Assembly (NCBI GenBank): GCA_008632985.1
Contig: QPGO01000171.1
Location: 1-64,000 of the forward strand
DNA length: 64,000 bases
Source: Psammoneis japonica
Taxonomy: Eukaryota
Direction: 5' to 3'
Part shown: positions 2,299-55,069 of the stretch, piece by piece
Layout: the number at the start of each line of letters is the position of its first letter
Numbering within the stretch: the stretch's first letter is position 1
Program-made: the position numbers and the translations under genes
The notes under the pieces: generated by a model
Seen by the model: only the letters and a program-made list of their open reading frames with translations
What the model was told of the DNA's origin: nothing
The model's database searches: none

Positions 2299-4141
2299 TT
2301 TTCCCAACAAGTCATCTGCCCACTCAAAAGAATGTCACAGTTGACCACAGAACACTGTGCACCCCTGCTGCAAAATGTCTCACAGATGTTGGACAGATGA
2401 AGCACCTGGGTTGCATGCAGGCTGTGTGCCTCAGTTCCAGAAATTGTCAAACCCTCCACAACATGTCCCACAGAAAACACACCAGAAAACATGCTGATCA
2501 CATGATGATTGATTGCATCATCTCATTGAAGCCAGTGCCCCCTGCACCACCATCAAACAGCTGTTGTCAAACTTGTCGCTGAAGCACAAAGGGAAGGAAT
2601 TGGTGGTCATTTCATTTAACTTCATGATCAAGCAAAGACTGGGCAAGTGCAAAATTGTCCCTTTTTTGGTTGGTGCTGACATGTGTCATTGATTTTCACT
2701 GTCCACTCCCCTCTGTTGCACCTTGCAAGCAATGACATGGAAAAGTGTGTGTCTTTTCATTGCATCTTGCAAAGGCACGGTCTTTCTCGTGACAGAACCA
2801 CTCTCTGTCATGAGTCCATGCATTGGCTGTCTTTGTGCACATGCTCACACACATCCAAAGGTCTCCTGTGGTGACCCAGGGTGTGTGAAGCATGTGCAGT
2901 GCAGTCGACACACAGACTCATGATGGAAAGTGTGAACAGAACCATCGTTTTAGTGTTTGTCACAAAATCACTTTTTGTTTTTTGCACGAGATGTGCTCAC
3001 TCACAGACTGTCCTCTTTCTCATTGTCATGCAGGTTTTTAGTCTAAATAACACCTTGGTGTTGTTTTTTGGTGCCTGTGTGAGAAGTGGTTGGACCACAG
3101 CCTTGAGATTCTTGGCAAATGCAACACCGGCGGGCTCACATTTGGCAGAGGGATGACACTTTTTGTGCTCTTTGAGATTTCCACATGGTTGCATCACCGT
3201 GGGGCACATTGGGTGCACAGGCAAGACAATGTGAGCATCTTGCTTTTACAAAGATTGTTGACTCACCCAATGGTCATGCTTCATGCAGGATTCAGCACAA
3301 AGAATGTAATTTTGCTGCCCTGCCGTTTGTCAAAAGATGTGTCACAGTCAAGCTGTGCCAAGCACTTGCACCTGTCAACGTGAGCTCAACTGACATGACT
3401 GCGAATGGAGATGATGTCACAGCAACAACAAAATGGGGATGCCTTTGACAGCAACCGCATGATCAACACCATTGTTCAGATTGTGCATTGCTCATCACGA
3501 TCGGTCGCGATAGCGTCGTGCACACTCAATACACTCTCTTGAGCCTACCTGGTATAATACGTAGAATTCTACGGTATGATAGTTACACGATGAACCTCAA
3601 GCTAGCGGATGGACCAATAATGTGCGCCACCTCTGTCGCCTCTGCCTCCGTGGAGACACTGATCGAAAACCGAAAATGCCATGGTCCATGGTCCGTTGGC
3701 GGAGTTTATTGTTGGGTCGAGCAAGGGATGATACCAAGTTTTTGGAGCTTTCTGTGGCCACTTTCTGTGTTCATTTTATGCGTGAAAATGCACCAAGACT
3801 CACTGACAGACTGGACGAGAGAACGAGAAGCTTTGTGGAACCTACTGGCACCACCAGACCACCGATTGGTCATGTTTCCCCTTCCCTCTCTTACATGACT
3901 CCTGATCATCATTTCAGTGAGAATATCCAAATTAGAGACTTCGCCAGTGGTTGAGAGTTAAGAAAGCCAGGCAAGCAAAACTGTGTAGAAACCATTCTGC
4001 GAATCACTGCTGAAACACTAAACGTAAAGTTTTGGAGGAAAGACACATCATGTCGCTGGTGGGATTGATTTACTTGCTGCCACAATTCTCCGGCAATCAG
4101 GAAGCAACCAATAGAAGAAAAGACAAGGCGAACCTTTCAAC

Positions 4142-6205
4142 ATGAAAGGGTATCAAAAGGAACGATTTCTTCAACCGGTTGAGCGATATCTCTTTTTTTG
4201 TAATGCGACTCATGACGCCACAGCTCCTCAATCGTTCATGTCTGGAGTGAACGCATCTTTTCTCGGTCCCTTATCTCCAACAAATACCAACTATCCGCTA
4301 CAATGTGATGGCACTGGAGTCAGGTCAAATCTCAGTCCGCAGGGCGTAATGCCTGCATCTTTTCTGGAGTCACATGAAAGCTTGCATTTGCTGAAGCATC
4401 ATTTCTCTCAAGTAAACGCAACCGGTCTTTCTTTTGAATTGTGGATAACCCCGGACACTCATGACAAACCAAGTGTGCTGAACCCTTCCTCCGCTGAGAC
4501 AAACCCTGTGTTTACGATTGCTGGAAAAAGTAGTTTGCTTCCGCCGTACAATTGCGATGGATATGAAGTCCTGTTAGCACGAAGGGGTCCTGTCCTGCAG
4601 CTGACCTATTCTGTAGGTGATGCTTTTCATAGCTGCCGTCACCTTACCACTAGTAGCATGTCTCAACGGGTGTCATCGGCGCTAACTCATGTGATTGTAT
4701 CATTGAGTGATAGGTAGGTTTGTTGGTTGCGTGCGCGTCGCAGAAGCTCGTCCCTCTAGGCCTAACACGCACCTATGCTGTGTCTATAACAGAGAAACAA
4801 CAGTCGCAGTGAACGGAATACCTTTCACAGCAGAATCGCAGACCGATCGTTTCGACTTAACTCTTCGGCACTATGGCTCACATGACACGTTACAGATTCT
4901 CCCGGGTCCCAAGCCATTTCAGGGTGTTGTCCACTCGTTTGCGTTGTATGACACTTACATATCTGCGGCAGAAGCTGAGGCTAGATTTGTTCTCGGAACT
5001 GACTCGGACGTACCGGGACCGCTTGCGAGACAGCTTCGTGCCATTCCTTCGAGCAATTACACCCTAGTTCAAGGTCGCACCAGTGAAGGAGCCATTTGGT
5101 TAAGAGGGGAAAGTGTGCCCAAGTACACGGGTCCATTATCTGTTGAGATTCTCTCTCTCCCCAACCACGGTTTCCTGTTTCCTTTGGACGAGATGCGTAC
5201 TCTTACCGTCGGTTCAATCCTTGAACTCGACCGGAGCACGCTGCGGGTACCAATCCTCTATTCATCATTTTCCTTGGACTATTTTAATGCTCCACCCGTA
5301 TCAGCGAAAGGAGCCAATCTGAGGATATCGCCGGAATCATTCATGTTTCGTGTAGTCGCCCCTCATCCCGAAACAGGAATTAATCTTATGGTATCGAAAC
5401 CCGCGTCCCAACAGATCCGGGTGCTCAACATGAACCATAGACCAGTTCTTACAGCTCCTCACCGTCTTGTGTTCGAGTCTACGAGCTCATATGATGGAGC
5501 ACGCACGACGATTTCTCATATATCTTTGGCCGACAAAGACAGAAACGTAGACAAAGTAAGGGTTGACTTATTTGTCCGGAATGGCACATTAAGCCTTGAT
5601 GAACATTACCTTCATCTTGCAGACTTCCGCAGTTGCCTAGATCGACCCTTCGGGACATGGGAATGTCATGGAAACACTGCTAATGTTCGGTCGGTAAGTT
5701 CCCCCGCCGCTCAAAGTTCGTTTAATTTCGATTGTATTCACAGATTTGAGCATTCTTTCTTGTGTGCGTAATTTTTAAGATGACATTCCTTGCCGTTCCA
5801 GAAGATGTAAACTTTATTCTTCGAGATATGCAGTATCTTAGCTTCCCCGGTATATCGCAAGACGAACTGGTCGTGCGTGCATATGATGGTGTTGGTGGCG
5901 AGTGCCTGGCCCAGTTTGAGCTCTCGAGCTTTGAGGATGAGTTTGGAAATTCATACGCACCCGTACAAAGCGGCTGCCATGAAGTTCACGCTAGCATTGA
6001 AATTACAGTCAATCGCATTGTTGATCAAGCAAGTTCTTTCTACCTTGCCCAGTTTTTCTTCGTATGCGCGGCACTCGGTCTGTTTCTTATTGTCGGGTTA
6101 TTTCTCTTTAGGTGCTGCTTGAGCAAAATGTCACGGTGTCGAAAGACGCTTGCTGCGTTGGCGGCGTCTACTCAAGTGTGCAGTGGTTGTAGCTCTGAAG
6201 AATAA
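4142..6205 (+). CDS. Putative single-pass membrane protein with LamG/concanavalin-A-like and cadherin/Ig-like extracellular regions; exons 4142-4713, 4793-5693, 5780-6205 (true start may lie upstream)
   Basis: Three ORFs join in frame through GT-AG introns 4714-4792 (GTAGGT...CTAAC...AACAG) and 5694-5779 (GTAAGT...TTTTAAG). LamG-like motifs SFELWITP, THVIVS and FQGVVHSFALYD; cadherin-like linker VLNMNHRPVL; C-terminal TM FFFVCAALGLFLIVGLFLF followed by a basic/Cys tail. Normal CpG/TpA content. Confidence 0.75.
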
Positions 6206-7299
6206 AATTTGGAAAATATTGTTTCACTGCCGTAACTGGTGCTTTTTATCCTTTCTACATGGCAATCAAAATTGTGTTGGTCACCAGTCCCAAGTCTCGT
6301 GCAAATTTGTTGTTTGATTCGAGGCACGACCAGCAGCAGTTTGATGCGGAAGTCGAGCCAGGTGTCAATCTGCTCCATTTCAGATCTTTGCATCTTTTTC
6401 TTCAATCTTCTCTGCACTTTGATCCCGAGTCAAATTCTCAAACGTCCCTCACACGCTCTTTTGGGAAAAATCCTTCTTGCGAAGCATTGTGGTGACATGC
6501 CATCATTCTCTCCGTCACAAGCACCAGAAAAATGCGTTCTCCACGCAAAGTCCAGTGGTCCAGTGCTTCTGCCCCACCAGTCATGGTCTTGAAAATGCCA
6601 GCACTTTGTTCTTGCTCACTTTTTGGGTGTTTTTCACCTTTTACGTTTTGACAAAGCACACTGCCGTTTCACAATCACAAGGGTTTCTTCTTAATGCTTC
6701 TCACAGTGCCAACCAAGCAACATCTTAAAAGTGTTTTCATTTCCACTGACTGTGTGTTGGTGCAGAGGTCACTCCTGCCAGCAAAATGTGCTGGTGTGGT
6801 GTGCTGGGATCTGCATCAGGTCACGCTGTGATGACCTGCACAGTCTCACAGCTTCTAAGCAAAACATCACTGATTCTCTTTTGCACATGAGCATTCTGAC
6901 ATCACACTTGAGCATTTTCAACATGAGAACTTGTGTGCTCTGTTGTCACAATGGTGTTAAAATTATTGCAAACTTCTTTTGCATTTTTTGGGTTTCATTG
7001 GCCAAATGTTGTACAGGGTGCAGTGCCTTGGTTTCATCAGCCAAAGATTTTGCAGAGTGCAGTGCCATTTCTGCTCACAAACCACAACACAGCACTGGCC
7101 AGACCATGTCACTGTGCAATGCACAGCAACGGCTGTCTCCCAGCACCAGCATCGTCATGTGTTTTCTGACACCTCACTTGAGCCTTTTCAATGCAAGCTT
7201 GTGTGCTCTGTGGGCCGTGACAACATCAAAGCCATTGCAACACCTTGCGCATTTTTCAACCTCATCCTTTGAAGAGATCTGGTGAGTTTGTGGTGATGA

Positions 7300-13600: not shown

Positions 13601-14048
13601 CAGTTAGTTGCTTGCTGCATCACCGCTTCTTCTTGGCAAAATGTTCTTGACGGTCGCAGACACCCTCCTTCAGCTGCCAGACGTGTTGATTTCTTGCGAT
13701 TGAAAACCAACAAACCAATCGGAGATCCTCTCCAACCCAAGTTGCTTCACCACACTCGCTTGTGTGCTTTCAACGCAAATGGATGCAAGTTCAACAAAAG
13801 AGGAGGGGACAATTAACACCTGTTGTCAAGTTGCTGCGGAAATGCAAGCTGACACATTGGGAATCTCTGAGGTTTGTTTGGACACTGCACAATGTGAGGT
13901 CCTGTCTACGTGCAGATCTACGGTCTCAAACTCCCCTTTACATGGTCGATCCACCTTTTCATGCAGCTCAACTCCTTTTGAAACACAGCACAAGCCAGGT
14001 TGACCCATGCAGAAATAGGGAACAAGCACTCACAACATCGTAGAGACA

Positions 14049-15083
14049 AAAAAAAAACAAAACCTAATTTTAAGTGCTATTACACCTTTGCCCAGCAACA
14101 CCGGCGCCGGCTAACCCACACTTCCAGTACACCCTGCGAGGAGAGTGCGGCAGAATGTCGTGCGATCAGTCGGTCAACGCGCCGCTTTGCAGCGACGCGC
14201 ACCAGTGATAAAAGGTCAAGGAAAAATTGCACCAGAATGAGATTATTGCTTTCTTTCGGAGAGGATGTAAGGCACCCAAACCACCACAGCAAAGGACAAT
14301 CAAGTTAAGTAGAGAATTCAAAGTCAGCGCATACTCTGAGAGAAAATCTTTGCCTCTGAGGGAGAATCTTGTCTTCAACAAAGACTGATTGAATTTCACA
14401 ATTGCATGAACCAGAACAACAATGTGCAGTTCACTGCTCGGAACAGTGATCTTGGTAGGCCAGTAAGTAGAAAAGGGGATGTTCGTGACTTGCAAGGATG
14501 AAATAGGAAGTCTTGGTGATGTGACGAGAAGGTCGTCGGAAGAAACATTATTCTCACGTAGAATTGATACTGAATCTTGCGTAGAAAAGCCGATCCGCGC
14601 AGCAAATGGACGGTCGTCAGATGATGCCGATGGTTTATCCATACGAACACTCGTAGGCGCCACAACAGGGACAGCACTTTCACCACATGAGGTGAAGAAC
14701 TTGAGTAGCCAGTAGGAGTAAAAGAAATTGTTGGGGGCTTTCGGGTAAGGATGGAAGTTGATCGTATCGGAGACGTAATGACTGTCGGTATATATTTCTG
14801 AAGCGCGTAGAACTTGTACTGGATTCTGTGTAGAAATCGCACCGAATCCGCAAAAAATTACCAAATAAGACAACAAGCATACGAACCATAAAGTGTCGAC
14901 GCCAGTCGTTTTCCACTGAAAATTATTGCACATCATGGAGATAAAAGGGTGTACCAATGGTAGAAGGGGCCAAAAGGTTGACAGGGGACTCAGCGAAACG
15001 CCGTCTGAAAAGGGCGACATCAGTACGAGAGCACGCGTAGAAACACACGTAGGGGTTGCTAGTGGGTGCTTACGTAGAAAAGT
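14049..15083 (-). mobile_element. 1035-bp retroposon with a LINE-like T-rich 3' tail, inserted in an LTR
   Basis: 17-bp TSD ACAACATCGTAGAGACA (14032-14048, 15084-15100); the last ~110 nt resemble the LINE 3' end (22940-23046) and 31331-31440; CpG and TpA intact. Confidence 0.85.
14166..15020 (-). CDS. Intact 284-aa ORF of unknown function filling the 1-kb retroposon
   Basis: ATG 63 nt inside the element 5' end, stop just before the conserved tail; hydrophobic stretches LWFVCLLSYLVIFCGFGAI and LNSLLNLIVLCCGGLGAL; no motif recognised. Confidence 0.45.
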   Translation of the reverse strand: MSPFSDGVSLSPLSTFWPLLPLVHPFISMMCNNFQWKTTGVDTLWFVCLLSYLVIFCGFGAISTQNPVQVLRASEIYTDSHYVSDTINFHPYPKAPNNFFYSYWLLKFFTSCGESAVPVVAPTSVRMDKPSASSDDRPFAARIGFSTQDSVSILRENNVSSDDLLVTSPRLPISSLQVTNIPFSTYWPTKITVPSSELHIVVLVHAIVKFNQSLLKTRFSLRGKDFLSEYALTLNSLLNLIVLCCGGLGALHPLRKKAIISFWCNFSLTFYHWCASLQSGALTD

Positions 15084-15866
15084 ACAACATCGTAGAGACA
15101 GATTTGGGTGTTGTGAAAATTGTGAGATTATTTCATTTAGAGTGCAAATGCACGATGGTGTTCTTTTCTAAGAAACAAGAATTCTTGTTACATGACAAGT
15201 CATTGGAAAGACTTAAGCACAAGTCTTTTGTGACACTTGTTGACACTCATGCGGAGCCAATTCGCAGGCTCATACTCGGTGCTGCATGCATCCTGCGCAG
15301 ACCCTTCACACAAGGTGAGTCACGTGCGTGATGGCCAGTCGCGCCGGTCTCAGTCGCATGGGTCACTCCTGTGGCCCATCGCAGGTCTCGTACTGCAGGA
15401 GTCGTGTTTTCTACAACACGCTTCTGCGGGATCAGTGTCGCTGTGGACAGCCTACAGACACAGGAAAGTGGCATCATCGGCGGCCACGGCAGGGATGCCT
15501 GCTGCACTCGCCCCTGTGACAAGGTCGCACGAGTGACAGAAGGGTCCCACTGCTGCTGAGGGACATTTTTTTGTTGTGTCCAACAGCACACACTACCTTC
15601 TCATTCACAAAGGGAGTCATTGTCATCACATTGACATTGTTTCAGTGGACATTTTGCCATGTGTGGCCTCCAGAACATGCACAGGTGAAAGCTGTGCTCA
15701 GGAGCATTAAGACATTTATCAAATTGTCCAAGCTACTGAGGTCACACAGGTCACTGCCATGTTGGCCGTCATTCTTGGAGACTCGTTGCTGCCACATCAT
15801 CGGTGTCAGAATCAGAGTCTTCAGAGAGGTGTGCATTGTCAAAGGTGTGAAGTTCACTGTCTGCCT

Positions 15867-26000: not shown

Positions 26001-28480
26001 TGGGAACCCATGTGCTGTCACCTGGAAGATTCCAACTGGCCATCCGAATCCCGTGAATTACGTGGTCGCTTTGTTGGCATTGCCGAACACGTTTGCCACC
26101 AAATGACATTCAAGATTCTTTCTGACAACACTCAGAAGATTCTCTGCCGTTCCAACGTGCGTTCTGCCCATGATCCGTCTGCCCCAAACCTGCATCTTGA
26201 TCCTCCTGACAACAGATCTGCTGAACCCATCATTAAATCCTGCCACGACTCCAAGGATTTGCCAGATTCACCAGATGGGGAGGCAATCAGGATGCCCAAA
26301 ATGCCCGTCTTTGACCCCGAGGATATCATCGGACGTACCTTCCTCATGAAGCCACAAGAGGATGGACAATGCCACAGAGCCTGCATCGTCAAAGCCGTTG
26401 AGGACCACAACTGGAAAATCGGAGACAATCCTGGACTAGTCAAGTTCATTGGCTCCATTGACAATGATGAATGCGAGGAAGTCCCACCCTGCAATGACAT
26501 CATGCACCACATCAAGCAGGAAGACGAGGACACCACCCTCTGGAAGTTCCGACGCATCGTGTCACACAAAGGACCATTGCGACCCTATGATCCCTCTTGG
26601 AAAGGCTCAAGCTACAACGTCATGCTTGAATGGGAGAATGGGGAGGTCACATCCGAACCCCTTGCCATCATTGCCAAGGATGATCCCGTCACCTGTGCCA
26701 TCTACACACGTGAGCATGGCCTCCTTGAAACCGAAGGATGGAGGCATTTTCACAAGATAGCCCTGCGTCAGAAGAAGCCATTCCACATGGCCAACCAAGC
26801 CAAGTTACGCTCCTTTCGCACTGCACCATGACACAAGCACGGACATGAAGTGCCATGGGACCACAAGCATGCCTTGGCCCTCGATGAGTGCAATGGCAAC
26901 CACAAGCGGGGAGACGCAACAGACCTCGAGATGACTCAGCTTGATGAGTACAAGGTCTTCCATGACTGCGGACATTACAAAGATTCCAGCACCCCATCGG
27001 GATGCAAGAAGGTCTGGGTGCATCTTGTCTGTGATCTCAAACATGAGGGACGACACAAAGCAAGGCTTGTTGCCGATGGACACCTCACAGACGTGCCCGT
27101 TGACAGTGTCTGTTCTGGAGTAGCGTTTCTTCACGGCCTGCAAATGATGATCTTCCTGCCGCAGCCAAACTCAACGAACTAGAGACTTGGGCCACTGACA
27201 TTGGGAATGCCTGTCTCGAAGCTACGACCAAGGAGAAACTGTACATTTTGCAGCAGGCCCCGAGTTTGGCAAGCTGGAAGGACACATCCTTGTCATCCAC
27301 AAGGCCTTGTGTGGACTCCGCAGCTCTGGCCTCAGATGGCATGAATGCTTTGCCAATTGCTTGCGTGCCGAAGGCTTCTTCCTGTGCAAAGCCGAACCCG
27401 ACATCTGGCTGCGCAGGAATGGTGACCACTATGAATGCGTGGCAGTGCATGTGGATGACCTGGCCTTCACCATGAAGGACCCCCAGGCTTTTGCAGACAC
27501 CCTCATGGAGAAATGCAAGTTCAAGCTCAAAGGCACTGGACCATTGGAGTTCCATCTTGGTTGCGATTTCACCCGCGATCCAGATGGCACCCTGTGACTT
27601 GCTCCCTGCAAGTAAATTGAGCACATGGTTGACAAATGCGCGCGCCTTTTTGGGGAGAAGCCCCGCTCTGATGTGCTTTCACCCCTTGACAAGGGAGACC
27701 ACCCTGAGCTTGACACTTCTGAATTACTCGAACCTGATGGCATCCACCAATTTCAATCCTTAATTGGTTCCCTGCAACAGGCTGTATCCCTTGGACACAT
27801 TGACATTACTGTGGTTGTCATGTCTCTGTCTAGCTTCCGTGCAGCGCCCTGCCAGGGCCACCTAGACCGTGCCAAACCTGTCTGCGGATTTCTCTCCAAG
27901 ATGCGTCATGGTGCCCTCTGAATGTGCACCGAGGAGCCCGACTGTTCAGACCTTCCTAAGCCCGTGTATGACTGGGCCCAGTCTGTGTGTGGGGAAGTAG
28001 AAGAGCTGCTCCTGCAAGATGCACCTGAGCCACTTGGCAAGTTCGTCACCACAACACACTGTGTCGATGCGAACTTGTTCCATTGCATGCTCACTGGACG
28101 CTCTGTCACCGGCATCCTCCATTTCCTCAACAAGTTTCCGGCTGATTGGTTCTCTAAGAAACAAGCTGCAGTCAAGACTGCCATGTATGGATCCGAGTTC
28201 ATTGCTGCAAGGACGTGCGTTGAGCAGATTATTGACCTGCGCATCACTTTGGGTTACCTTGGCATCCCCATTTGTGAAACATGTTACATGTTCGGGGACA
28301 ACAAGTCGGTTGTGGATAGTGCCACCATCCCGCACTCCAAGTTACACAAGCAACACACACCCCTCTCATTCCATCGTGTACGTGAGGCAATTGCCTCCGG
28401 TTTTCTTGAGTTTCATTTCATTGAAGGGTCCCGCAACCCGGCTGACATCCTCAGCAAGAATTGGGGTTACTCCCAAGTCT
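23063..28480 (+). pseudogene. Copia gag-pol (frameshifted, with nonsense codons)
   Basis: gag FK*GVKRD; protease LVECGANSGVAG; integrase VCSDTPA / ISDRAQ / SEPHQQHQN; chromodomain-like SSYNVMLEWENGEVTSEPL; RT HKARLVADGH, VHVDDL; RNase H VDAN, YGSEF, FGDN, ADILSK. Confidence 0.9.
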
Positions 28481-28583
28481 GGAATCTCCTTCATCCTCTA
28501 ATGTTTTGGAACTTCGATCCCAAGGCTTTCAACCAATCCAACTTCGAATCTATGGCTGTTGACCCCTCAAGCATGCTGGGGAG

Positions 28584-28828
28584 TGACAGGATTTGAACAA
28601 GATTTTAGTTTATCACACATGATTATGTGTGCTCTTAGTTCTGCATGCGTCGCGCGATGTAGTTTGCTTTCGAGCCACACGGCTCACAAGAATAGCAACA
28701 GCAGCACCGACATCATGACACCAGTGTTTCGGCTCCTGTGACGGTCTCTGCACAGAGACTCATCTGCCATTTAGACAGCAGTAAGGAGTCATTGTTTTCT
28801 TCCACCCAGTCATCTTCAATTTCTGTCA
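28584..28828 (+). repeat. 3' LTR of the Copia element
   Basis: Direct repeat of 10365-10613, preceded by a PPT. Confidence 0.92.
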
Positions 28829-37821: not shown

Positions 37822-38280
37822 TGCAGTGGGCATCCCTGCCGTGGCCGCCGATGATGCCACTTTCCTGCGTCTGTAGGCTGTCCGTAGCGACGCTGATCCC
37901 GCAGAAGCGTGTTGCAGAAATCACGACTCCTTTTACGAGACCTACGATAGGCTACAGGAGTGACCCATACGACTGAGACCGGCGCGACTGGCCATCGCGT
38001 ACGTGACTCACCTCGTCTGAAGGGTCTGCGTAGGATGTACGCAGTGCCGAGTATGAGCCTACGAATTGGCTCCGCATGAGTGTCAATAAGTGTTACAAAA
38101 GACTTATGCTTAAGTCTTTCCAATGACTTACCATATAACAAGAATTCTTGTTTCTTGGAAAAAGACACCATCGCGTATTTGTACTCTAACTATAATAATC
38201 TCATAATTTTTACACACACAGAAAATCTCCATCTTACGGTTTAAGTGCTTATTCCCTAGGGCCTATTTCTGCATAGGTCA
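37822..38280 (+). mobile_element. Solo LTR of the family at 14001-17459 (opposite orientation), only lightly mutated
   Basis: TGCA...GGTCA, reverse complement of 17006-17459; 4-bp TSD ATCT (37818-37821, 38281-38284). Confidence 0.92.
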
Positions 38281-38439
38281 ATCTGTCAGTCATCCATTAT
38301 GATGTGCAAAGGAGAGGCTGTGCCAGTGACCATCGATGCGATGCATGACACTCTCACAATTTGCATCGACCATCACTTGACATCAGTCATGGTGACAATC
38401 TTCCCCTGCATTGGTCCTCTTTATGCCATGAATTGAGAA

Positions 38440-43960: not shown

Positions 43961-44074
43961 TTCCCAGGATGCAGAACAAAATTGCGAGCAATGCTCATGT
44001 CAACACAGCCAAAAGATTGAAAGGCTGCCACCCAGTGGGATTCCATGTGATGTGGGAATGGTGTCACTGTGGCT

Positions 44075-44726
44075 CTCACAGTTGTCCTTGTGGACCTTGT
44101 GGACCTTGTGGGACTGTAGAAGACCAGCAATCCAGTGTAGATACAAGGCGGTAGACTTGCAGTGTGCAGAGCAGGGCCAGAGTCAAGGGTTTGTGTCATG
44201 TGCGCGTGGACGCGAGAGGATGGATTGGTGGGATCCGCCACAAGGAATCCGGAATCTCAGATGTCTTAGAATTCAGGAGTTCCTGGTCAAACAAATGTCC
44301 ATTGAACAAATGTGTCCAACGATGGGAGGCATTGGATAAATCCAAACGTGTAGATTTAATCCAGCATCCAGCAGTGAAGAAGGCAGACACATGCTTCCAC
44401 CGCCAACGGTGCACGTCGTCGAAAATTTCTCGATGACGATGATGAATGCTCAGTGGACAACAAAGAGCAAGACTGTTAATCTGACAGAAAATGAAGATGA
44501 CTGGGTGGAAGAAAACAACAACTCCTTGCTGCTGTCTAAATGGCAGATGAGTCTCCATGCAGAAACCGTTGCAGGAGCCGAAAGACTGGTGTCGTGATGT
44601 CGGTGCTGCTGCTGTTGTTCTTGTGAGCCGTGTGGCTCAAAAGCAAACTACATCGCGCGATGCGCGCGGAACTAAGAGCACACATAATCATGTGTGACAA
44701 ACTAAAATCTTGTTCAAATCCTGTCA
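44075..44726 (-). mobile_element. Truncated 5' end (LTR 44482-44726, PBS and leader) of a further copy of the Copia family
   Basis: Reverse complement of ~10365-11030. Confidence 0.9.
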
Positions 44727-47373
44727 TCACCCAAGCTGTGAAGTCCCCCCACTTGCTTTCCGTGGCTGCCTGAAATCATTCTACACAAGTCTTCCCATCA
44801 ACCAAGTTGCTCACTCATGATGTTGCGTTTGATCTCCATGACCGGCTCCTTGAAGAACTTGTTGGCTCTCGGCAACCATCCCCTCCCTTGTTGCTCTTCC
44901 TTGGTGCCATGCATCATCTCCTCCTGCGCCCTCCTTTGCCGGGCATGAGTTGCTTGGCACAAAGTGCTTGAGTCATCTTGCACACTTTCTCTTCTTTGTG
45001 ATGTCATCCTTTTGCATGAGCCTCTTGTTGGCGATGCTCTCAAGCTCGTTCGCAACACCCATCAGAGCTGAGAGTCGCTCTCTCATCTTGTCCCGACCCT
45101 GTGTCATTGGAAATGGCCACGCTGCTGGTGTGAGTTTTGAATCTTGTGCAACATCAATTCTCCAATGAAACTTGCGGCGAAGCTTGTCTTTGTGTGGCTT
45201 GCCTGTTTTGTCTGGTCATTTTGTGCCAAGCGTGAGGCACTCAGAAAAGCTTCTTCTTTGACACTCGGCCATCTGCAACATCAATCCCCCAGCAAAACTT
45301 GCAGCGAAACTTGTTTTTGTGCAGCGCACCTGTTTTGTTGCACAAAGTGTGAGTGCAATGCTCAGAAAAGCCTCTCTTCTTTGACACGATCTCTTACCTT
45401 GATGATGTCTCTGCCGGCCTTTTGATCATCAGCCATCCACTTGCTCAGATTGGTCTGTCTCCAAGGCACAGTTGCAACAATTCTTTGTTGTTTTTTGTGT
45501 TGTGCATTTGCCTGCACTCACCGTGCCATGGTCGCACTGCTTTGCACGCCGTTGCAAGCCGGCCCTCCTTTTTTTGTGTTGTCTCTTGAGTCTTGCGGAG
45601 CGACGGTTGCATTTTTCCCCTCTTTGTGTTTTTACTTGCCTGAAAAGAGTGCTTCCCACACATTTTTTATTTGGCTGTGCATCTGCATTCGAATTTAAAC
45701 AGATCCTCTGTCCAAAAATAAGAACCATTTTTCTGCGTGATTTTTGCATGGCTCATGTACGAGGAAAATGTGCTTTCACCAACCTCTCGAGTCGTTGACC
45801 GTGATGACCATGATGTGGCATGTTTGGGTCAATTTCCGAGTCTCACGGAGTGAAAATCACCAATGAGTCATGTGAGATAACCACAACAATGAACTCATGT
45901 CATCAGAAGCGGCGCATCCCATGCTGAAGGCATGTTTTGCTGCAAATTCATTGATCAGCCACACCAACAATCAATCACGAACTTGCTGCTTGTGTCAAAA
46001 GGAAGGAGCCTGTTCTTTTTTTAACTGTTGGTTGTTGTTTCTTGGTGACCATGTGTGCTTCATAAAAGGCGGAATGAGCATCAACGCCATCGCACTTCAT
46101 TGTCATGGTGGGGCCGAGTTGTTTGGCAGCTCTTGATGATGCATGCAGCAGGTTTTAAAATGTTGATTTATGAAGAACCCATGCAGTCTTATGTGGAGAA
46201 TCCACGGACTCCTCATCATGCTACTTTCGCGGTTCTGCACTGATTCACAAAATGCACAGGGGATTGGATCCGTAGATCACAAGTGGAAGGGACAAATGCC
46301 CTGTGCACGATTGGCCAGATGAATGCTGCAAAAGGAACATCATGAGTCGTCGATGGCAAGGATGGGTTTTTTTTACATGAAGGGAAACAGAAAAAGGTGA
46401 AATTTCACTGAATGATTGACACTCATCATGAAGACGGAAATGCCGCACTTTTGGCGCAAATGCACATGCAATGTGAAAGTGAACATGTTTCAGTTGGAAT
46501 GAAACACAATTGTTCAGAGACAAAGGAGCAATTCTGCCATGTCACTTGGCATGTTGGCACACAAGTCAATATATGCACATTGAACAAAACATGTCTAGGA
46601 GCAACAAGTGCAAAACATGCTGATCAGGATGGTGAAAACAAATGAAAATGTTGCACTCCCAACAAGCAATGTCGATTTCAATCTGGAGTGGGGTCGACCA
46701 ATGTTTGCACATGTGTGCACACCATGAGATGGTGGGGTTCAATGACCTGTGACTCATGGCCTTTTCTGTGGGTCTCTGATGACTCATTGACACATTCATT
46801 GCTTGCCAATTTTACTGCAGAGCTCGCACATAGAACTCTACGGGCCCAATGTCACAAAAAGTCCCACCTGGGACTGGAACCCATCTGTCAGAGAACATGG
46901 GGGAATTCCTGAGTGAACAAACATCCATTGAATGGATGTGTTCCATGATCAAAATCCTTGGATGTGGATCCAAACGCATTGACAGAAATCGAAGAAGAAT
47001 TGGATTTCGATGGTCAACTTTCACGATGAATGCGGAAACAGTGAATGGCAACAGCGATAAATCAGCAGCACAAATGCTAATAGATCACTTCATTCCTCGG
47101 TCGGGGAATGGAAATCCATCAGCAACAATGGCACATTCTGGTGCGAATTCCAAAGTGGGCTTGGGTTCGAGTCTCACCAACCGCGTGTCTCAGCCATCGG
47201 GGTGTCTGAACATCTGGGCATGCCATCATGGGCATGAGACCAGGCACCTCCACCTGGCCAGACCAAAAACTGTTCCTGACCCTGGAACACATGTCCCCAT
47301 TGTTCACAGGGGCACCTGCAACGGTCTCTGCACGGAGACTTGTCTGCTGTGTAGACAGCAGTAAGGTGTTGCA

Positions 47374-49748
47374 CCGGTGGTCATCCGCACAAATGCCACA
47401 TTTGCCCTAAATGTGGCATGAATGTGGCATTTTGATCCCAAACGCCACCACAATTTTTCCAATGCTCCCTAATTGTTTTTCCGTTGACAGCAAAGCGTTA
47501 AACACCACTGGGCATAGGGGCGTATGAAATACATACTACGAAATACCTAACAATTGTCATAATTAAAAGTAGCAAATTTCTTTTACAATTTTTCAGTCAA
47601 CCTCAACAAAAGTTCAACTAAAGTGGCGCGGTTTCGGCATCACGTAGAACCTACGGACTTCTCAGTACACTCGATTCTGACGACTGGCAGACCAAGAAAA
47701 ACACCAGAATTTATTCGCAGTCAAGGTTGACGATGGCGTTGCTCGTCTTGTCTATGCTCTTGATAAACAATGTCACAGCTCCCAACAAACATTTCTATTG
47801 TCAATACAGGCACGAGAGGCATCCCCAATCATACCGGGGATGAATCTGCAGCGTCTACTCAACCGCCACCGGAGCAGACGTCGGTTGAGCTGCAGGGTCG
47901 TGTTGAGTCGTCGTGTTGAAGACGACATCGGCTTCACCGCACTGAAAGGAAGCAGTGTGATGAAGATAGAAAACAAACGCAAGCTATTGGTAGCATTTAT
48001 GGAGAGGCCTGTAAAGGCTAACTTCCAAGGACCGACAGAGGAGCATGCTGTCGCCGAGATCCACAATCTCAAAATATCGGGTGCGACGGCGGCGGCGCGC
48101 AAACGCAGCTGGAACGCAGACTGGACGGATGTGTTCTTGTGCTATTTGTTGCTGCCCATACCGGTACGATGCAAGCTACGCAATGCACGAGGCAAGTCTA
48201 TTGAAGGTAGCATTGTTTGCATGTTCTTTTGATTGTGGCTCTACTGACACTGTGATTTCTATTTCTCTGTATCCAGAGAACCAAAATCATGAAGGATGCC
48301 TACCTTGAAAAGCATCTAAATGATTTTGAGACTCAGGCCACTAGGGCTGCACCACAGAGGCAGCTCGAAATACTACAAGGTATCATTGGAGACAACATTA
48401 GGAATGGCATGATGGACGCCAGTCAAGGTAGCGACGAGAGCAGGAGCTAACATGACATCGCCGCGGAAGGACTTGAGACTTGGCATTGCAGGATTTGCTG
48501 CTACATCCAACAGAGCAATGGGCTGTATGGTAGACTTGATTGAAAAATAGCATCTATTTGTTGGCACCTCTCACGACACCGGTAGTAGCACAAGCTATCA
48601 ATGCTAGTCGATGTTGGATTGACATTCTATCGAGTAGTAAAAAGCATTGTAGAGTTGGCCTCTATCTATTTTTTCTTATTCTGTCACACTGGTTCCAAAT
48701 GTAGCCACAGTTGTGGAAGGTGTTAGCAATACCGTGCAACTCTTGGGCGGCAACCGTGTAGATTATTTGTTGCTCCAGATCGTGGAGGCTGTTGATGGGA
48801 AAAAAGCCGGTCCGTGAGGATCTGGCAAACAGCGTGCTCCACAGGACCATCCTTGGGCTGGCAGGGTGGTCTCTGGGCTATTTGAAAGTGATGTCCTGGA
48901 GTATTGCGACCCCCCACTGTTTGGGTGACGAGTGGAGTGAGATGCGAGTTGAGATTGTCCCACATCACAATTCGGTGGGTCGTCCAAACCGGCAATTGGG
49001 TTCGCCTCGATTGAAGACAGCACCTGGTTGACAAAATCAGCAAATGCAAATTGGTCTGTACCTCCTACTCGCCTCAATAAATCGCATTGATGCAGTGATG
49101 TCGTCACCATTGAAGAATTGCTGCAGTCCAGCTTCGCGGAACCAAACTGGATGCCCTAGGCATGCACCACGTAAGATGGGTCGGGAAGCCGCGCACGTGT
49201 CATTCCGAGCTCTCTGTGTGCCCTAATGGTAATACAGGCAGAAGCCCTTTGATCCGCAGGGTCATTCTGCATTGTATATTGTGTAGTCTACAGCATTGCT
49301 GCTTCCATTTCCTCGTCGCAATGAGAAGATCATTGCTCGTTTTGGTTTGATGGAATCAGTTTTGATGATTCTTGCCGCCATCACATGACGTCAGAGTACT
49401 AGCCGTACGTACATGTGTACGAGAGCGAAGCTCGCAAATTTTGTTGAACTTTTGTTGAGGTTGACTGAAAAATTGTAAAAGAAATTTGCAACTTTTAATT
49501 ATGACAATTGTTAGGTATTTCGTAGTAAGGGAAAATCGATTGGAAGTGGCATTCCAAGGCTTCTGTAGGGCTATATCATACATAAGAAATGAGTTTGTCG
49601 CAGTCGGGGGCCACGAATCAATCGCCGGCACGCTTTTTTCACGCGCAAAATATGGCATTTTATATGGCATTACGTAGAATCAGTACCAGTTTCGCTGTAG
49701 AAAGAAATGCCATATGGCATTATGGCATTTGTACGGATAACCAACTAG
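47374..49748. mobile_element. MITE-like TIR element hosting the Tc1/mariner insertion
   Basis: Left TGGTCATCCGCACAAATGCCACA (47378-47400) versus reverse complement of the right arm TGGTTATCCGTACAAATGCCATA (49721-49743); repeated subterminal A/GTGGCAT motifs at both ends. Confidence 0.7.
47536..49525 (-). mobile_element. IS630-Tc1-mariner DNA transposon with 83-bp TIRs and a defective transposase
   Basis: TIRs 47536-47618 and 49443-49525 (1 mismatch); TA TSD on both sides; minus-strand RIVMWDNLNSH...RPPCQPKDGPVE catalytic D...E segment (48835-48975), frameshifted and apparently internally deleted. Confidence 0.88.
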
Positions 49749-49931
49749 TACGGTAGCTACTAGCTACTAGTAGAGAGGGTAGGGCTAGAGGACCTACACT
49801 TCCTCATTTACTACGGTATCGAAAACCCTCTGCTGCTCTACCGTAGCTCTACTCTAGCTAGAGAGAGTCCTGCCTGTGGATCTAGCGTTGCAGCTGGCTG
49901 TTTCTTGCGTCTTTCTTCGCTTTGTAAGAAG

Positions 49932-52900
49932 ATGGATGTCGAGTCGCTGCACGATGTTCTACAGCAGTCATTCAGCCCGGAAGCAAGTGTTCGCGGCCCA
50001 GCAGAACAAACGATTCGAAACATAAAGTATGTCAAGGGGGCAACTTCAATGCTCCTGCAGGTGGCTGCAGAGAAGCAGGTGAGCAATGGTGAAAGATTGT
50101 CCTTTTCCTATGCCGATAAGCCGTTGGCGTTGAATCTCAATATCGGTTCACGTCTTCCACTTCAGGTGCAATTTGAAGTACGACAAGCTGCGGCAATTCA
50201 GATGAAAAATGTTTGTCGGGAATGCTGGGTGGAGCGAGTTGGTTTCAGCGGTGTCCATCCAGTAGCGAGGGGTGAGAGGAAGCCTCCGATATTGCCTGAT
50301 GACGACAAGGCGGTGATCCGGGCCAGTTTGGTTGATGCCCTTCTTGCTGAACACGAGAAATCTATTCGCGACCTCATGGCAGAAACTCTTCACCATATCG
50401 CGAATCATGATTTCCCAGAAAGGTGGCCGATTCTCATCCCCACCCTTCTCAATACAATATCACGAAGCGATTTACCGGCTCAGGCTCTTCGGGTTCACAA
50501 TGCCTTACTTGCACTCCGGAAAATATGCAAACGGTACGAGTACAAAAGTCGAGAACACAGAGGACCTCTAAACGCAATCGTCGCAGAATCGTTTCCACTT
50601 CTCCTGCCACTGGCTCAGCGGCTGAGCGATCCAAATGAACACAGCCTTGAGGCAGCACTAATGTTGAAGCAAATACTCAAAATATTTTGGAGTTCTACTC
50701 AGTTTTACCTCCCCGGAGGTCCGCCTGATGGAAGAAGTACTCCAACGCTAGGGAATCCTGAAGCCATGCAGCCGTGGTTCGACATTTTGCGTGCTGTTTT
50801 GCTGAAGCGTCTCCCTGAGGCCTCCACGGGGCTAGAACCTCGGAACCAACCGACTTCGATTGAGGATCGAAACCAGTGGCCTTGGTGGAAAGTGAAGAAG
50901 TGGGCAGTGCAGATTATGTCTCGTTTGTTTTCTCGATACGGCATTCCATCCTACGCTGAAGATGATGTGCAGCAGTTTGCACGGCACTTTTCTCAGAATG
51001 TAGCGACTCAGTTTCTTGGACCGGTCTGCGAAACTCTCAATCTCAGGCCGTCTGGGCAATTCTGCACTGATCGTGTGGTACATTTGTGTCTTACATATGT
51101 TGATCTTGCTGTTGAACTGGCGCCAACGTACAAGATGTTGAAACCCCACCTAGATTTCTTGCTGTACAAGGTGTGCTTTCCAACTCTTTGTTTGACATCG
51201 GAGGACATCGAACTTTTTGAAAACGACCCACACGAATTCGTCCATCGGCAGAATTCACCCTTGGCCGACTTCTATGATCCTCGGCTGTCTGCAATAACGT
51301 TAGTGACCGACTTAGTGAAGCATCGAGGCCAAGACGTCACGCAGCCTCTTCTGGGTTTCCTCACTGATGTTATCCATCGATACAATGCGTCAGATGATAC
51401 TCATAAAAATCACGTGGAAAAGGATGGAGCGCTCCTTAGCCTCGGATCCCTGTCGTGCTATCTTCTATCGAAAAAAAAGTATTCGAAAGAGCTGGAAGGG
51501 CTGCTTGTTTCAAGTGTGTTTCCAGATTTCAACAGCCCGATTGGCTTTTTGAGATGTAGAGCTTGTTGGATGGTACAGCGGTTTTCGACGGTTGCTTGGT
51601 CAGACGATGGCACTAACTTACAGACCCTGATCAACATGGTGTTGCAAAGGTTGAGTGATCCAGCTCTCCCAGTTCAGATAGAAGCAAGCAAGGTACGCAC
51701 AGCAACAAGCACTGGGTTATTCCTACCATCGTCACTCATTCAGATCATTTTCATCTTGACCATTTCATACGGAAAAGGCACTTCGTTTCCTTATCGAGGC
51801 TGAAGGAGCAGATAAAACGCTTTTGCCAGTTCTACCGCAAATCCTTACCGAATACTTCCGGATCATGAACGAGATTGGTAACGATGAAGTCGTGGCGGCT
51901 TTGCAGGTGATTATTGACAAGTTCGGCGACCACATCGAGCCGCATGCCGTTGCACTGGTAACGCAGCTATCGAACGCCTTCTCGACTTACTGCCATGCAG
52001 GCGAGGATGATGATGACGATGCCGCAATGGCAGCCGCACAATGCCTCGAATGTATTGCCACTGTGCTCAAAGGAATTTGCGGGCAACCATCACTCTACAG
52101 CACACTGGAGCCACAGCTCATTCCTCTCGTTCTGAAGATCCTCGGCAACGATGGAGAATATATTGAGTACTTGGAGTGTGCGCTAGACATCCTAACCTTT
52201 CTCACTTACTTTCCGGATGAGCTCTCGCCAGCATTGTGGGCAGCCTTCCCGCTGCTTTATGTTGCCTTCGATCAATGGGCCTTCGACTATCTCAATCTTA
52301 TGGTACCACCATTGCAGAGCTTCATCGGCAAGGCTCCTCAAGTTTTCATCACTGGATCTGCCGCGCTCACCGAAGGTACAGTTTCGTACATAGATTTGGT
52401 TTTGAGCATGGTTGCGAAAACCGTTACCAATGACAGATCATCCGAAGGCGAATGTCGCCAGGCCCTTTCGCTGTTCATGAGCATTCTTCACAACTGCCCC
52501 AACCAGGTGGATGCCTACCTCCCGGTTATAAATGAAATAACTCTGGGAAAACTGGGGCAGCAAGTTAATGCTGAAATTCCGTGGACGCGAATTGCTGCAT
52601 ATCAAGTGCTAGGGTCAGCACTTTTCTATAGTCCTCAGCTTGAGCTCACCGAGCTGGAAAAACGAGGAGTAACTCATGAAGTTTTCTCCAAGTGGATGTT
52701 AGACGCAGACTCTATGGATCGATGGTTGCCTCGGAAGCTAACTGTGCTAGGACTAGCCTCTATCCTGAGATTGCCGACGTCGGTCATTCCTCCTTCTATA
52801 TCGGGATCCATTCCTCAGCTAATTACCTTTGTTGTTCGAATCGCACAAGCGATGAGCGAGGACGCCGGGAAATCCGACAATGCCAACGATGACCTAATTG

Positions 52901-53361
52901 ACGAGAAGGAGGATGATGTGGATGAAGACTACGAAGGGTTTGGAGAGGATGAGGATGTAACGAACGAGGTAGATGACGCGTACAAGAAAGCATTGAATGG
53001 TATATCAGGTTTTGGGGACGACATGGCTGCATTTCTCATGGGTGGTGACTGGGATGAGGATGGTGAAGACTTTGAAGACGAATTCCAGAGCCCACTCGAT
53101 GAGGTGGACCAGGTGCTCTTCTTGAGTGATACTCTGCAGGGTGCTTTCCAACGAGAACCTGAGGTATGTGTCTCTGCCCTCCATGTCACTGTTGTAGTAT
53201 TTTTGCGCCTCAATTAGTTTTAACCCTTTTCCTTTAAGAAATATCGTCAGATTCAGTCGGCGATTCCCGTGGAAACGCTCAACTCTTGTCAGAAAATATT
53301 TGCAGAGGCAGATAGCTTGCGAGCAACACAAGCAGTTGAAGTGCCCCCAAAGGCAGTTTAG
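49932..53361 (+). CDS. IPO7: Importin-7/8 family karyopherin (SAD2/Nmd5-like); exons 49932-50078, 50166-51692, 51778-53163, 53239-53361
   Basis: IBN_N start (SFSPEASVRGPAEQTI, VRQAAAIQMKN), DFPERWP, WPWWKVKKW, FENDPHEFV, FLRCRACW, LPVQIEASKALRFLI and an acidic C-terminal tract; GT-AG introns 50079-50165, 51693-51777 and 53164-53238 keep the frame. Confidence 0.93.
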
Positions 53362-55069
53362 GCTTTTCCGAAGATTGGTTGTCACATGAGAAAGCATTCA
53401 GCTTTGTCAATTTGTTAACCCTGATTTGTGTGATGGCGAAGAACAGAATAAAATTATAGCAAAATACACCGCAATGAAATCAAACAGGGGATTACCCTTT
53501 GGAATCAAATTGGACTACATGCTGTGCACTAATGCGTGGTGATAACCAAACAGTGTGATGAGGACCAAAGCTTAGTTTTATTGCCGTTCCGTGCGAGATC
53601 TGAGAACAAAAACATCAATTTGACCAAGATCACCAGGACCGCTGCATTTGGAAGTGTCGTTGTCATGTCTTTTAAGATGAAAGGTGGACCAGATCCTTTT
53701 AGATGACAAGACGAAAGAAGATGACTCTTGTTGTGATGGAACATGTCAACCACCTCAATGTTAAGATGAGGAAGATCAACATGCAGCTTCACATTGGTGA
53801 GCATGGCAACACTCTCCTTGAGAAAATTATAGATGTGGCCACCAACACTCTCAAAACATCATCTGGCTTTTTCAATCTGGGGAACAGTGCCTGTGGTTCT
53901 GCAATTTGTGAGATGATGACTGAGTTGGACAGGTCACTTGATGATTTATTTGAGTGGTGCCTCCATCAGTGTCTTTTGGGCGCATCACTCAAAAAACAAT
54001 CTCTCACTGTTCTGTGGTGTCCTCACCACCTCACATGTCTCATGGCCATTGTCACACCTGCTGCTCCATGTCTGAAAAAGTGGAAAACAACAAGAGCTGC
54101 AAGTTCAATCCTGGTTGGAAGAACTGTGCTCTGCACAATTGCAGCGCATCTCATGCATGGCATGTCCCAGCATGTCCCCAAGATGCATCAGTCTTTTGGT
54201 GCTCCCGCAACTCAACACATCCACATTTGATCTTGCCAACTCACATTTAAAAGTGGGTTCTGGTGCTGCTGAGCAGAGCACCAAGCGATTGCACAGCAAA
54301 CAAGTGCGACTTCTGTGGCTGGGTGCCAGACAAATTGTGGCAAAACCTTCACTTTTCACTGAACATTCTGATCCAGTCATGCACCTTTGTGCTCCTGAAA
54401 GCAGCTCCAAAACAAATTTCATGTGCATGTGAGAGTGTCTTGGAACAAAAGGAATCGGACATTGTCACAAGGTGCCACGCCAATGCTCAACTGACAGCAC
54501 CTTTGTTTGATCCCGTCACCGTGTAAATTGCATGTTTGAGTGCCTTGCTCATCTTCTGCACTGATGTTTTTGCTTGTGTCTTCACACAAAGAAGCTCAAT
54601 CATGCGTTCCTGTTGTCGTGCAATGCATGTGCAAAGTTTTTGCATGCCTGGAATGTGGCCATTGCATCCCCTCTTTTTGGATTTGATCATGCTCATGTGC
54701 TTGCTTTGAACAGTGTGCGCGCAAATGCACACACAGTTGGTGCCAGTTTCTGTGCATTTCCCTGTGGGTTTTGCACCACAGGTGGTGCTGTTTGAGCATT
54801 TGGGGTGTGAATTTTTGATGGATTCTTTGGGTGGTTGTGCGAGATGATGTCATTCATCATTTGGTGAACATGTGTGGTGCATTGCTCCCTTTTCTTCTCT
54901 GCATTGTGTTTTTTGCATCTTTGGCAAATGCATTGGTGGTTTGTGGTGGGACGAGGGTGAGTTCTGCAGCTGGGTTCTTCCGTTTTTATTTGGTGCATTC
55001 GAGCTTGGTTGGATCTGCGATGTCATCGGTTCCATTTTTGTTTTGACATGGTGGTTCATTCTTTTCTTT

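Follow-up and report, generated by a model that had tools for sequence, protein, structure and literature searches.

Patchy, position-dependent loss of TpA across two nested transposons beside the importin-7 gene of Psammoneis japonica

Beside the importin-7 gene of the 64,000-nt stretch of DNA analysed here (the window), two nested transposons have lost TpA dinucleotides in patches, and among copies of the same age the loss depends on where a copy stands. The explanation that we prefer, with confidence only slightly better than even, is a domain-targeted TpA mutator that is excluded from the few hundred bases around active transcription units, the start of the nested element itself included.

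The mutator would act at TpA (A->G on one strand or the other, giving TA->TG or TA->CA) in non-genic, repeat-rich chromatin, and would not reach the DNA up to a few hundred bases from an active transcription unit. A MITE would first have stood whole beside the 5' end of importin-7, within the spared zone, until a younger 2-kb element entered its central TA and pushed its left half away. The repeat field would then have extended into the left TIR up to ~47424, while 47470-48130 would have been spared by the promoter and first exon that the nested element itself carries. The middle of that element would have become one-third mutated, and no hit would have fallen in the final ~700 bp in front of the importin transcript. 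The features and zones of the locus are collected in Table 1.

Table 1. Features and TpA zones of the locus, in window coordinates
Feature	Position	Strand	Remarks
LTR-like repeat	46980..47375	+	starts TGACAG, siblings end CTGTCA; cut at the MITE left junction
LTR-like repeat, TpA sites	46980-47373		19/24 inferred TpA sites hit (six sibling copies 22-24 of 24)
Left target site	47374..47377	+	CTAG in unmutated copies, here CCGG (TA->CG double change)
MITE left half	47378..47535	+	aligns with uninterrupted family copies
Left TIR of MITE	47378..47400	+	3/3 TpA now CpA; short terminal type
MITE left tip	47382-47424		5/6 ancestral TpA sites hit
Rest of MITE left half	47470-47535		0/5 hit
Spared dip	47470..48133		1/32 ancestral TpA sites hit (nested part 47534-48133: 1/27)
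TA target of nested element	47534..47535	+	second TA at 49526-49527; only one TA in uninterrupted MITE copies
Nested TIR element, non-autonomous	47536..49525	+	1,990 bp; ~95-bp TIRs 47536-47633 / 49428-49525, 94% complementary
RNA-type contig cover, run X2	47798..48566	+	85-nt skip fits GC..AG intron 48192-48276; strand taken from intron ends
Second mutated zone, nested element	48134..49133		22/66 hit; first 48211, last 49091-49092; CpG 0/30
Spared importin-side zone	49134..49744		0/31: nested element 0/21 (49134-49527), MITE right half 0/10 readable of 12
MITE right half	49526..49744		aligns with uninterrupted family copies
Right TIR of MITE	49721..49744	-	unmutated; long terminal type, one extra base; then CTAG 49745-49748
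Importin-7 gene	49786..53217	+	ATG 49932; GT..AG intron 50079-50165; RNA-type contig reaches 49786

Direction and specificity of the TpA mutator

Along the window, gene islands with an observed/expected TpA ratio of ~0.5-1.2 alternate with long fields in which this ratio is 0.03-0.3. CpG is low in the TpA-poor fields too, and their GC content is unchanged. Substitutions in the nested element were scored against the majority state of four low-mutation siblings. In the sibling copy L036, T>C was found at 81 of 226 TpA bases and at 7 of 851 bases in other T contexts, a 44-fold difference, together with 13/182 CpG transitions; only 3 of its 105 substitutions were transversions. The nested copy in the window carries 32 substitutions (TpA 23/226, other T contexts 3/851, one at CpG). 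Transitions from A:T to G:C made up 88/105 changes in L036 and 26/32 in the window copy, and C>T in CpA was found at 0/300 in both. The loss nears saturation in part of L036, where 62/66 sites were hit.

In the family alignments, one and the same site reads TA, CA or TG in different copies. This alternation indicates that TA is ancestral, and it excludes a change of CA to TA on the right arm. Double changes that end as CG account for 10 of the 743 hit sites across the families; such rarity would be expected if the first change destroys the target. Surviving TpA is commonest in TTA/TAA contexts (YTAR 19/100, RTAY 17/296, each site being counted once per copy so that the counts are not independent). 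Within a copy, hits on one strand are not grouped into runs (z=0.3 and 0.4). As judged from the substitution pattern, a TpA-specific A:T->G:C mutator in non-genic, repeat-rich DNA is clearly indicated.

As to its chemistry, deamination of adenine by a TadA/ADAT-type enzyme, as proposed for Bigelowiella, is put forward purely as a hypothesis. Nine PF00383 matches were found in the genome, one of which (L106) is TadA/ADAT2-like (E=1e-30); to our knowledge, tRNA editors of this type are near universal in eukaryotes, and presence alone says nothing. A->G on one strand cannot be told in sequence from T->C on the other, so the agent might instead be a mispairing modified thymine or methylated adenine at TpA, or error-prone repair at methyl-CpG. 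We regard such a different chemistry as a serious possibility, though one well short of even. CpG decay in the same fields and the 27 DNA-methylase-domain matches in the genome would suit it, while the middle zone of the window copy, with its 22 TpA hits and no CpG hit, and the rarity of transversions in L036 would not. ApA is moreover spared in L036 (2/299 vs 81/226 at TpA), unlike the WA motif of polymerase eta. The methylase-domain matches (C297, C10, C28, C301 and others), several of them clustered and with stops, outnumber a basic DNMT set. A search of the genome for TET/JBP gave 0 matches, the control likewise being without a match.

A MITE interrupted by a nested element

The sequence-only reading had taken 47374-49748 for one element with a TIR at either end. 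End-to-end alignment with uninterrupted family copies showed that the span holds two elements, a ~370-bp MITE and a 1,990-bp element nested inside it; hence 1,990 of the 2,375 bp belong to a second element that had been overlooked. The proposed pairing of the arms was confirmed, with the sequences as quoted: set against the reverse complement of 49721-49743, the left arm 47378-47400 shows 3 mismatches over 23 positions, in each case CA where the right arm has TA. In the left subterminal region, ATGTGGCAT is found at 47411 and 47422, where unmutated family copies have ATATGGCAT. The arm pair is above chance, since the two halves make up the left and right parts of the ~370-bp element, whose right half by itself has 38 matches in the genome assembly. 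Across the MITE family the TIRs are symmetric and TpA-rich, so the asymmetry is not ancestral; arm-to-arm mismatches number 0 in L002 and 1 each in L003 and L007, against 3 in L013 and 5 in L014, both of which are more diverged.

The outer element is short, bounded by TIRs and present in many copies at unrelated sites, as a MITE should be. Most copies are bordered by CTAG on both sides, and these flanks accommodate either TA or CTAG as the duplicated sequence. Out of 21 aligned loci, 15 full copies were counted, the partial or rearranged loci L010, L016, L020, L024, L028 and L030 being excluded; the C at 47488 was not scored as a TpA hit, as the low-mutation copies L007 and L014 share it. At 49567-49577, the MITE right half in the window has an 11-nt insertion at a TA that is missing from most copies, and L004 has a different short insertion at the matching position; both are possibly excision footprints. 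In another pair of adjoining MITE copies (L008/L015, C120:21136-22173), one is split by a ~400-bp insertion at the same central TA as in the window, and this TA may be a hot spot.

The empty joint of the nested element (47533->49526/49527) is seen in uninterrupted MITE sequence. Its family comprises five siblings (L032-L036) of 94-98% identity and older relatives of 76-87%. The siblings have TA on both sides, a TA target-site duplication, and solely on this duplication the element is placed as putatively Tc1/mariner-type. The four ORFs of L032 matched 0 Pfam families, a DDE transposase included, and one nested-element ORF matched only its own family in the genome assembly. As the family shows no DDE transposase domain, the element is non-autonomous. 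Two siblings, L034 (C174) and L035 (end of C10), are apparently one locus on two contigs, since both have a ~408-bp insertion in the right TIR; they differ at ~12 sites, TpA hits among them, and may be alleles with ongoing mutation.

The right-hand gene had been called an importin, and this identification held: it is importin-7 (E=2e-75), single copy, with no second copy or allele of its 5' region in the genome assembly. Beside the right TIR, 7 CTAG occur within 49744-49932. Low-complexity strings rich in CTAG/TAG fill the importin 5' region and flank many MITE copies (L003, L007, L013, L014, L004). In L004 the string is missing from the paralogous empty site, and in run X2 another contig matches 49836-49868 and then diverges. 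These strings are possibly a promoter-type motif and a preferred MITE target.

On the left, window 44400-47372 is a stack of repeats with related termini, in which a ~330-bp repeat present in many copies (44400-44726) is followed by a 2-kb element (44727-46781) and then by the cut LTR-like repeat, whose label was taken from its termini alone. The LTR-like repeat stops exactly at the MITE CTAG, and its final ~105 bp are absent. These ~105 bp are present in 8/8 sibling repeat ends and were found neither at nor near the right flank. A deletion has thus happened at the junction of the left and right flanks, which do not come from a single clean target site. The MITE ends also disagree by one base, short on the left and long on the right, while the end types match in 11 of 12 readable MITE copies and in 2 further copies.

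It had been argued that both arms share age and starting sequence. The latter part stands, since both halves belong to one subfamily; equal age does not follow, as flanks and end types mismatch. The arms may come from two MITE copies of the same subfamily, one inside the LTR-like repeat and the other at the importin promoter, joined by a recombination that deleted the intervening DNA, with the step at 47424-47470 as the crossover. We hold this to be possible and lean against it. The broken repeat, the missing ~105 bp and the unlike ends all fit such an origin, and MITE copies do form local clusters (C120, C42). On the other hand, internal subfamily markers do not separate the halves, and the clean stretch 47470-48130 next to a mutated middle would be left unexplained. 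Deletions at insertion may also be normal in this family: at the one paralogous empty site examined, the junction is not clean and contains ~45 bp of additional sequence, so an untidy single insertion is possible as well (no other empty site was found among the other loci compared or in a later search). With one subfamily in both halves, the starting sequence is equal whether there was one insertion or two, and the positional inference survives. A recombinant origin is also compatible with a mutator excluded from transcription units, and both may hold.

Distribution of hits along the locus and among family copies

The sequence-only reading had placed one sharp boundary near 47450-47520, with the gene side protected. 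A local step does exist at 47424-47470; as a single border or domain edge it fails, because 22 further hits at 48211-49092 lie nearer to the gene. The boundary was misplaced because the nested element had been overlooked. The step is not the mere edge of a young, unmutated insertion either, since it lies ~60-110 bp inside the MITE half and the middle of the insertion is mutated. The dip differs from the middle zone (1/32 vs 22/66, p=7e-4; 1/19 vs 21/57, p=0.008, without the resistant TTA/TAA contexts), with p-values that are optimistic because the zones were drawn post hoc. On the importin side, the edge falls at ~49100, a distance of ~840 bp to the ATG and of ~690 bp to where the RNA-type cover reaches furthest.

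The sequence of the dip is itself open to mutation. The same five sites of 47470-47535 were hit at 10/10, 7/10, 10/10, 9/9 and 10/10 in mutated MITE copies. In the nested part of the dip, L036 is hit at 19/26 sites, and five older nested copies are hit at 6/6 to 8/10 sites in their first 200 bp; the nested left end is therefore not immune by sequence. The hits of the window copy are independent of those of L036, which has changed on the same strand at 11 of these sites, on the opposite strand at 10 and not at all at 2. Only one hit is shared with L034, the nearest low-mutation sibling. A small RNA gene as the cause of the dip was ruled out: the 64-kb window holds no tRNA, and a scan of 44000-54000 against Rfam gave no match.

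If distance from the importin promoter were all that counted, the reverse of a dip would be expected. The 5' end of the nested element itself accounts better for the dip, which may otherwise be a fossil of the layout before insertion. Contigs of run X2 cover part of the nested element (Table 1). X2 was treated as RNA-derived as it skips the importin intron 50079-50165 and run X1 does not; it is listed as 'DNA?' and shares its sample with X1, possibly the one that was used for the assembly. One X2 contig carries the 6-nt insertion 48159-48164, unique to the window copy among the fetched loci, and another has window-copy letters at 48451-48520. Sibling letters appear in X2 contigs at 48211, 48248, 48339 and 48366; Logan contigs merge similar copies and yield no start site or level. 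These matches suggest that this nested copy, or its allele, may be transcribed from a promoter in its own left end. Hits start just inside the putative intron and run on through the covered 48211-48566. Hence transcription alone does not protect, and it would be the promoter-proximal part, not the whole transcript, that is spared.

Independent copies of the MITE supported the earlier proposal that protection near an active gene is positional. Over the 15 full copies, TpA loss follows the TpA ratio of the flanks (rho -0.87), as does the left-right asymmetry (rho -0.58, p=0.024). A long ORF lies within 700 bp of 5/5 spared and 1/10 mutated copies (p=0.002), a comparison that is partly circular because the five spared copies served to define the ancestral sites and TpA content was used as a filter for the ORFs. 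Pfam names 3 of the 5 ORFs nearest to the spared copies. Beside genes, hits number 0/23 in L002, 1/23 in L003, 1/22 in L007 and 1/23 in L013, while mutated copies in repeat fields are hit at 17-22 of 21-23 sites. Spared and mutated copies of one subfamily are only 0-9 transversions apart (L002 and L003 are 3-9 from their mutated mates and 7 from each other), so age does not explain the sparing. A nested-element derivative (L048) 150 bp from the ATG of an ORF shows the gradient within one copy, with hits at 0/11 sites over the first 200 bp and at 13/16 beyond.

Protection by promoters in particular, as had been suggested, was not singled out. When the proposed survey of TpA loss against the nearest TSS was run by distance to ORFs, proximity to an ORF mattered and no 5' excess appeared. 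In this crude survey without annotation, the distance from ORF end to depleted field had a median of 363 bp at 5' ends (n=19) and 376 bp at 3' ends (n=12; p=0.98). Four of the five spared MITE copies face the 5' end of an ORF and one a 3' end (L014, 434 bp away); the spared right end of L036 likewise faces a 3' end, ~930 bp away. Retained TpA was also seen elsewhere. A tRNA-His gene (L089:6579-6651, C18) lies in a ~650-bp island of retained TpA (6086-6733) inside a depleted field. In L016 (L094:4269-4785), 22 TpA survive between depleted flanks. No tRNA was found there, nor does any ORF of 170 aa lie within 1.8 kb; this copy may be a young insertion or mark an unseen protected feature. Other islands in the window are 3511-6256, 13907-15214, 27725-28782 and 37874-38298, the first and last with no ORF of 220 aa in the survey.

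The dip could also be a relic, which amounts to the promoter-exclusion idea of the earlier reading moved to an earlier layout. The step at 47424-47470 would have been set by the importin promoter while the MITE was whole and ~500 bp from the ATG, and the nested element would be very recent, its 22 middle hits having been acquired at a donor site. Distances of 200-800 bp between ORF and boundary are common in the survey. Low-mutation siblings in gene-rich sites are hit mostly mid-element (8/9 independent hits in 48134-48933, p=0.03), and a cut-and-paste donor may leave no copy. We nevertheless think this history unlikely. Beyond one L034 site and a chance-level overlap with L036, no copy in the assembly shares the middle hits, and intact MITE copies at similar distances from an ATG are wholly spared (L002, L003 and L007 at 124-302 bp, and L013). 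The left tip in the window was therefore probably hit after its displacement. That TpA changes occur everywhere and are purged near genes by selection is very improbable: composition boundaries do hug ORFs at both ends, but next to unrelated genes 22-23 of 23 sites survive in transposon copies that are non-coding and belong to different subfamilies, and selection on every TpA of an inserted MITE would be implausible.

Extending the preferred reading, that of a mutator excluded from transcription units, we speculate, with more doubt than belief, that a chromatin-targeted DNA adenine mutator is common to rhizarian and stramenopile algae and barred from any active promoter, a transposon's own included. 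A transcribed copy would then shield its own 5' end and its neighbour while its body erodes, and MITEs would escape erasure by inserting at CTAG-rich gene starts.

Comparison with known systems

RIP of ascomycetes is likewise a transition hypermutation at a dinucleotide that wrecks transposons. It changes C to T (CpA->TpA), targets by homology between copies, requires a RID/DNMT4-type methyltransferase and a sexual stage, and leaves strand-coordinated hits. The direction here is TA->CA/TG, with C>T in CpA at 0/300; same-subfamily copies range from 0/23 to 22/23 hits by position, not by repetition; and strand runs within a copy are missing (z=0.3 and 0.4). Polymerase eta, whose WA motif covers A->G both behind A and behind T, would not produce the ApA 2/299 vs TpA 81/226 of L036. 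MITEs and non-autonomous elements of the Tc1/mariner-IS630 type are resembled by the outer element, which is short, multi-copy and TIR-bounded, by the nested one with its TA duplication, and in the CTAG context, CTAG being a preference of IS630 elements. A difference is that no transposase was found in the MITE or the nested element. CpG is depleted in repeat fields here too, as in the CpG decay of DNMT5-methylated transposons in diatoms, in the part of that account available to us (Hoguin et al., PMC9998398), but TpA loss is much faster (81/226 vs 13/182 bases in L036).

No literature on TpA hypermutation in diatoms, on its boundaries or on this MITE was found, most subscription journals lying outside the search. 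The process is a variant of one that has been reported once, in another algal lineage. According to the parts of the report on Bigelowiella natans that we consulted (Mettrop et al., bioRxiv 10.64898/2026.01.13.699255), changes there are almost only A->G/T->C, fall only at TpA, are regional and affect both strands. They were measured in mutation-accumulation lines, in two large viral insertions, at a rate ~1000 times background per generation and in some lines only. TpA-poor sequences were enriched for DDE and RT domains, and an ADAT2/TadA-type deaminase was the hypothesis for the cause. The main text of the report contains 0 occurrences of 'diatom', 'promoter' or 'boundary'; this only published case found, as far as its main text goes, says nothing on how targets are bounded.

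Several consequences follow for genomes of this kind. TIR or LTR divergence cannot date elements in them, and a sharp step may be a junction, not a chromatin border. Neutral transposon copies of the same age act as built-in reporters and show positional targeting at a scale of a few hundred bases. As two mutated and two spared zones lie within 3 kb, this single locus allows direct tests of what guides the mutator. As far as the Bigelowiella report was available to us, the two systems share the near-exclusive A:T->G:C change, the restriction to TpA, the selfish or foreign regions affected and the sparing of genes. In P. japonica, by contrast, the targets are small DNA transposons and repeats, the loss is near saturation and mapped at sub-kilobase scale, and transposon copies beside genes are themselves spared.
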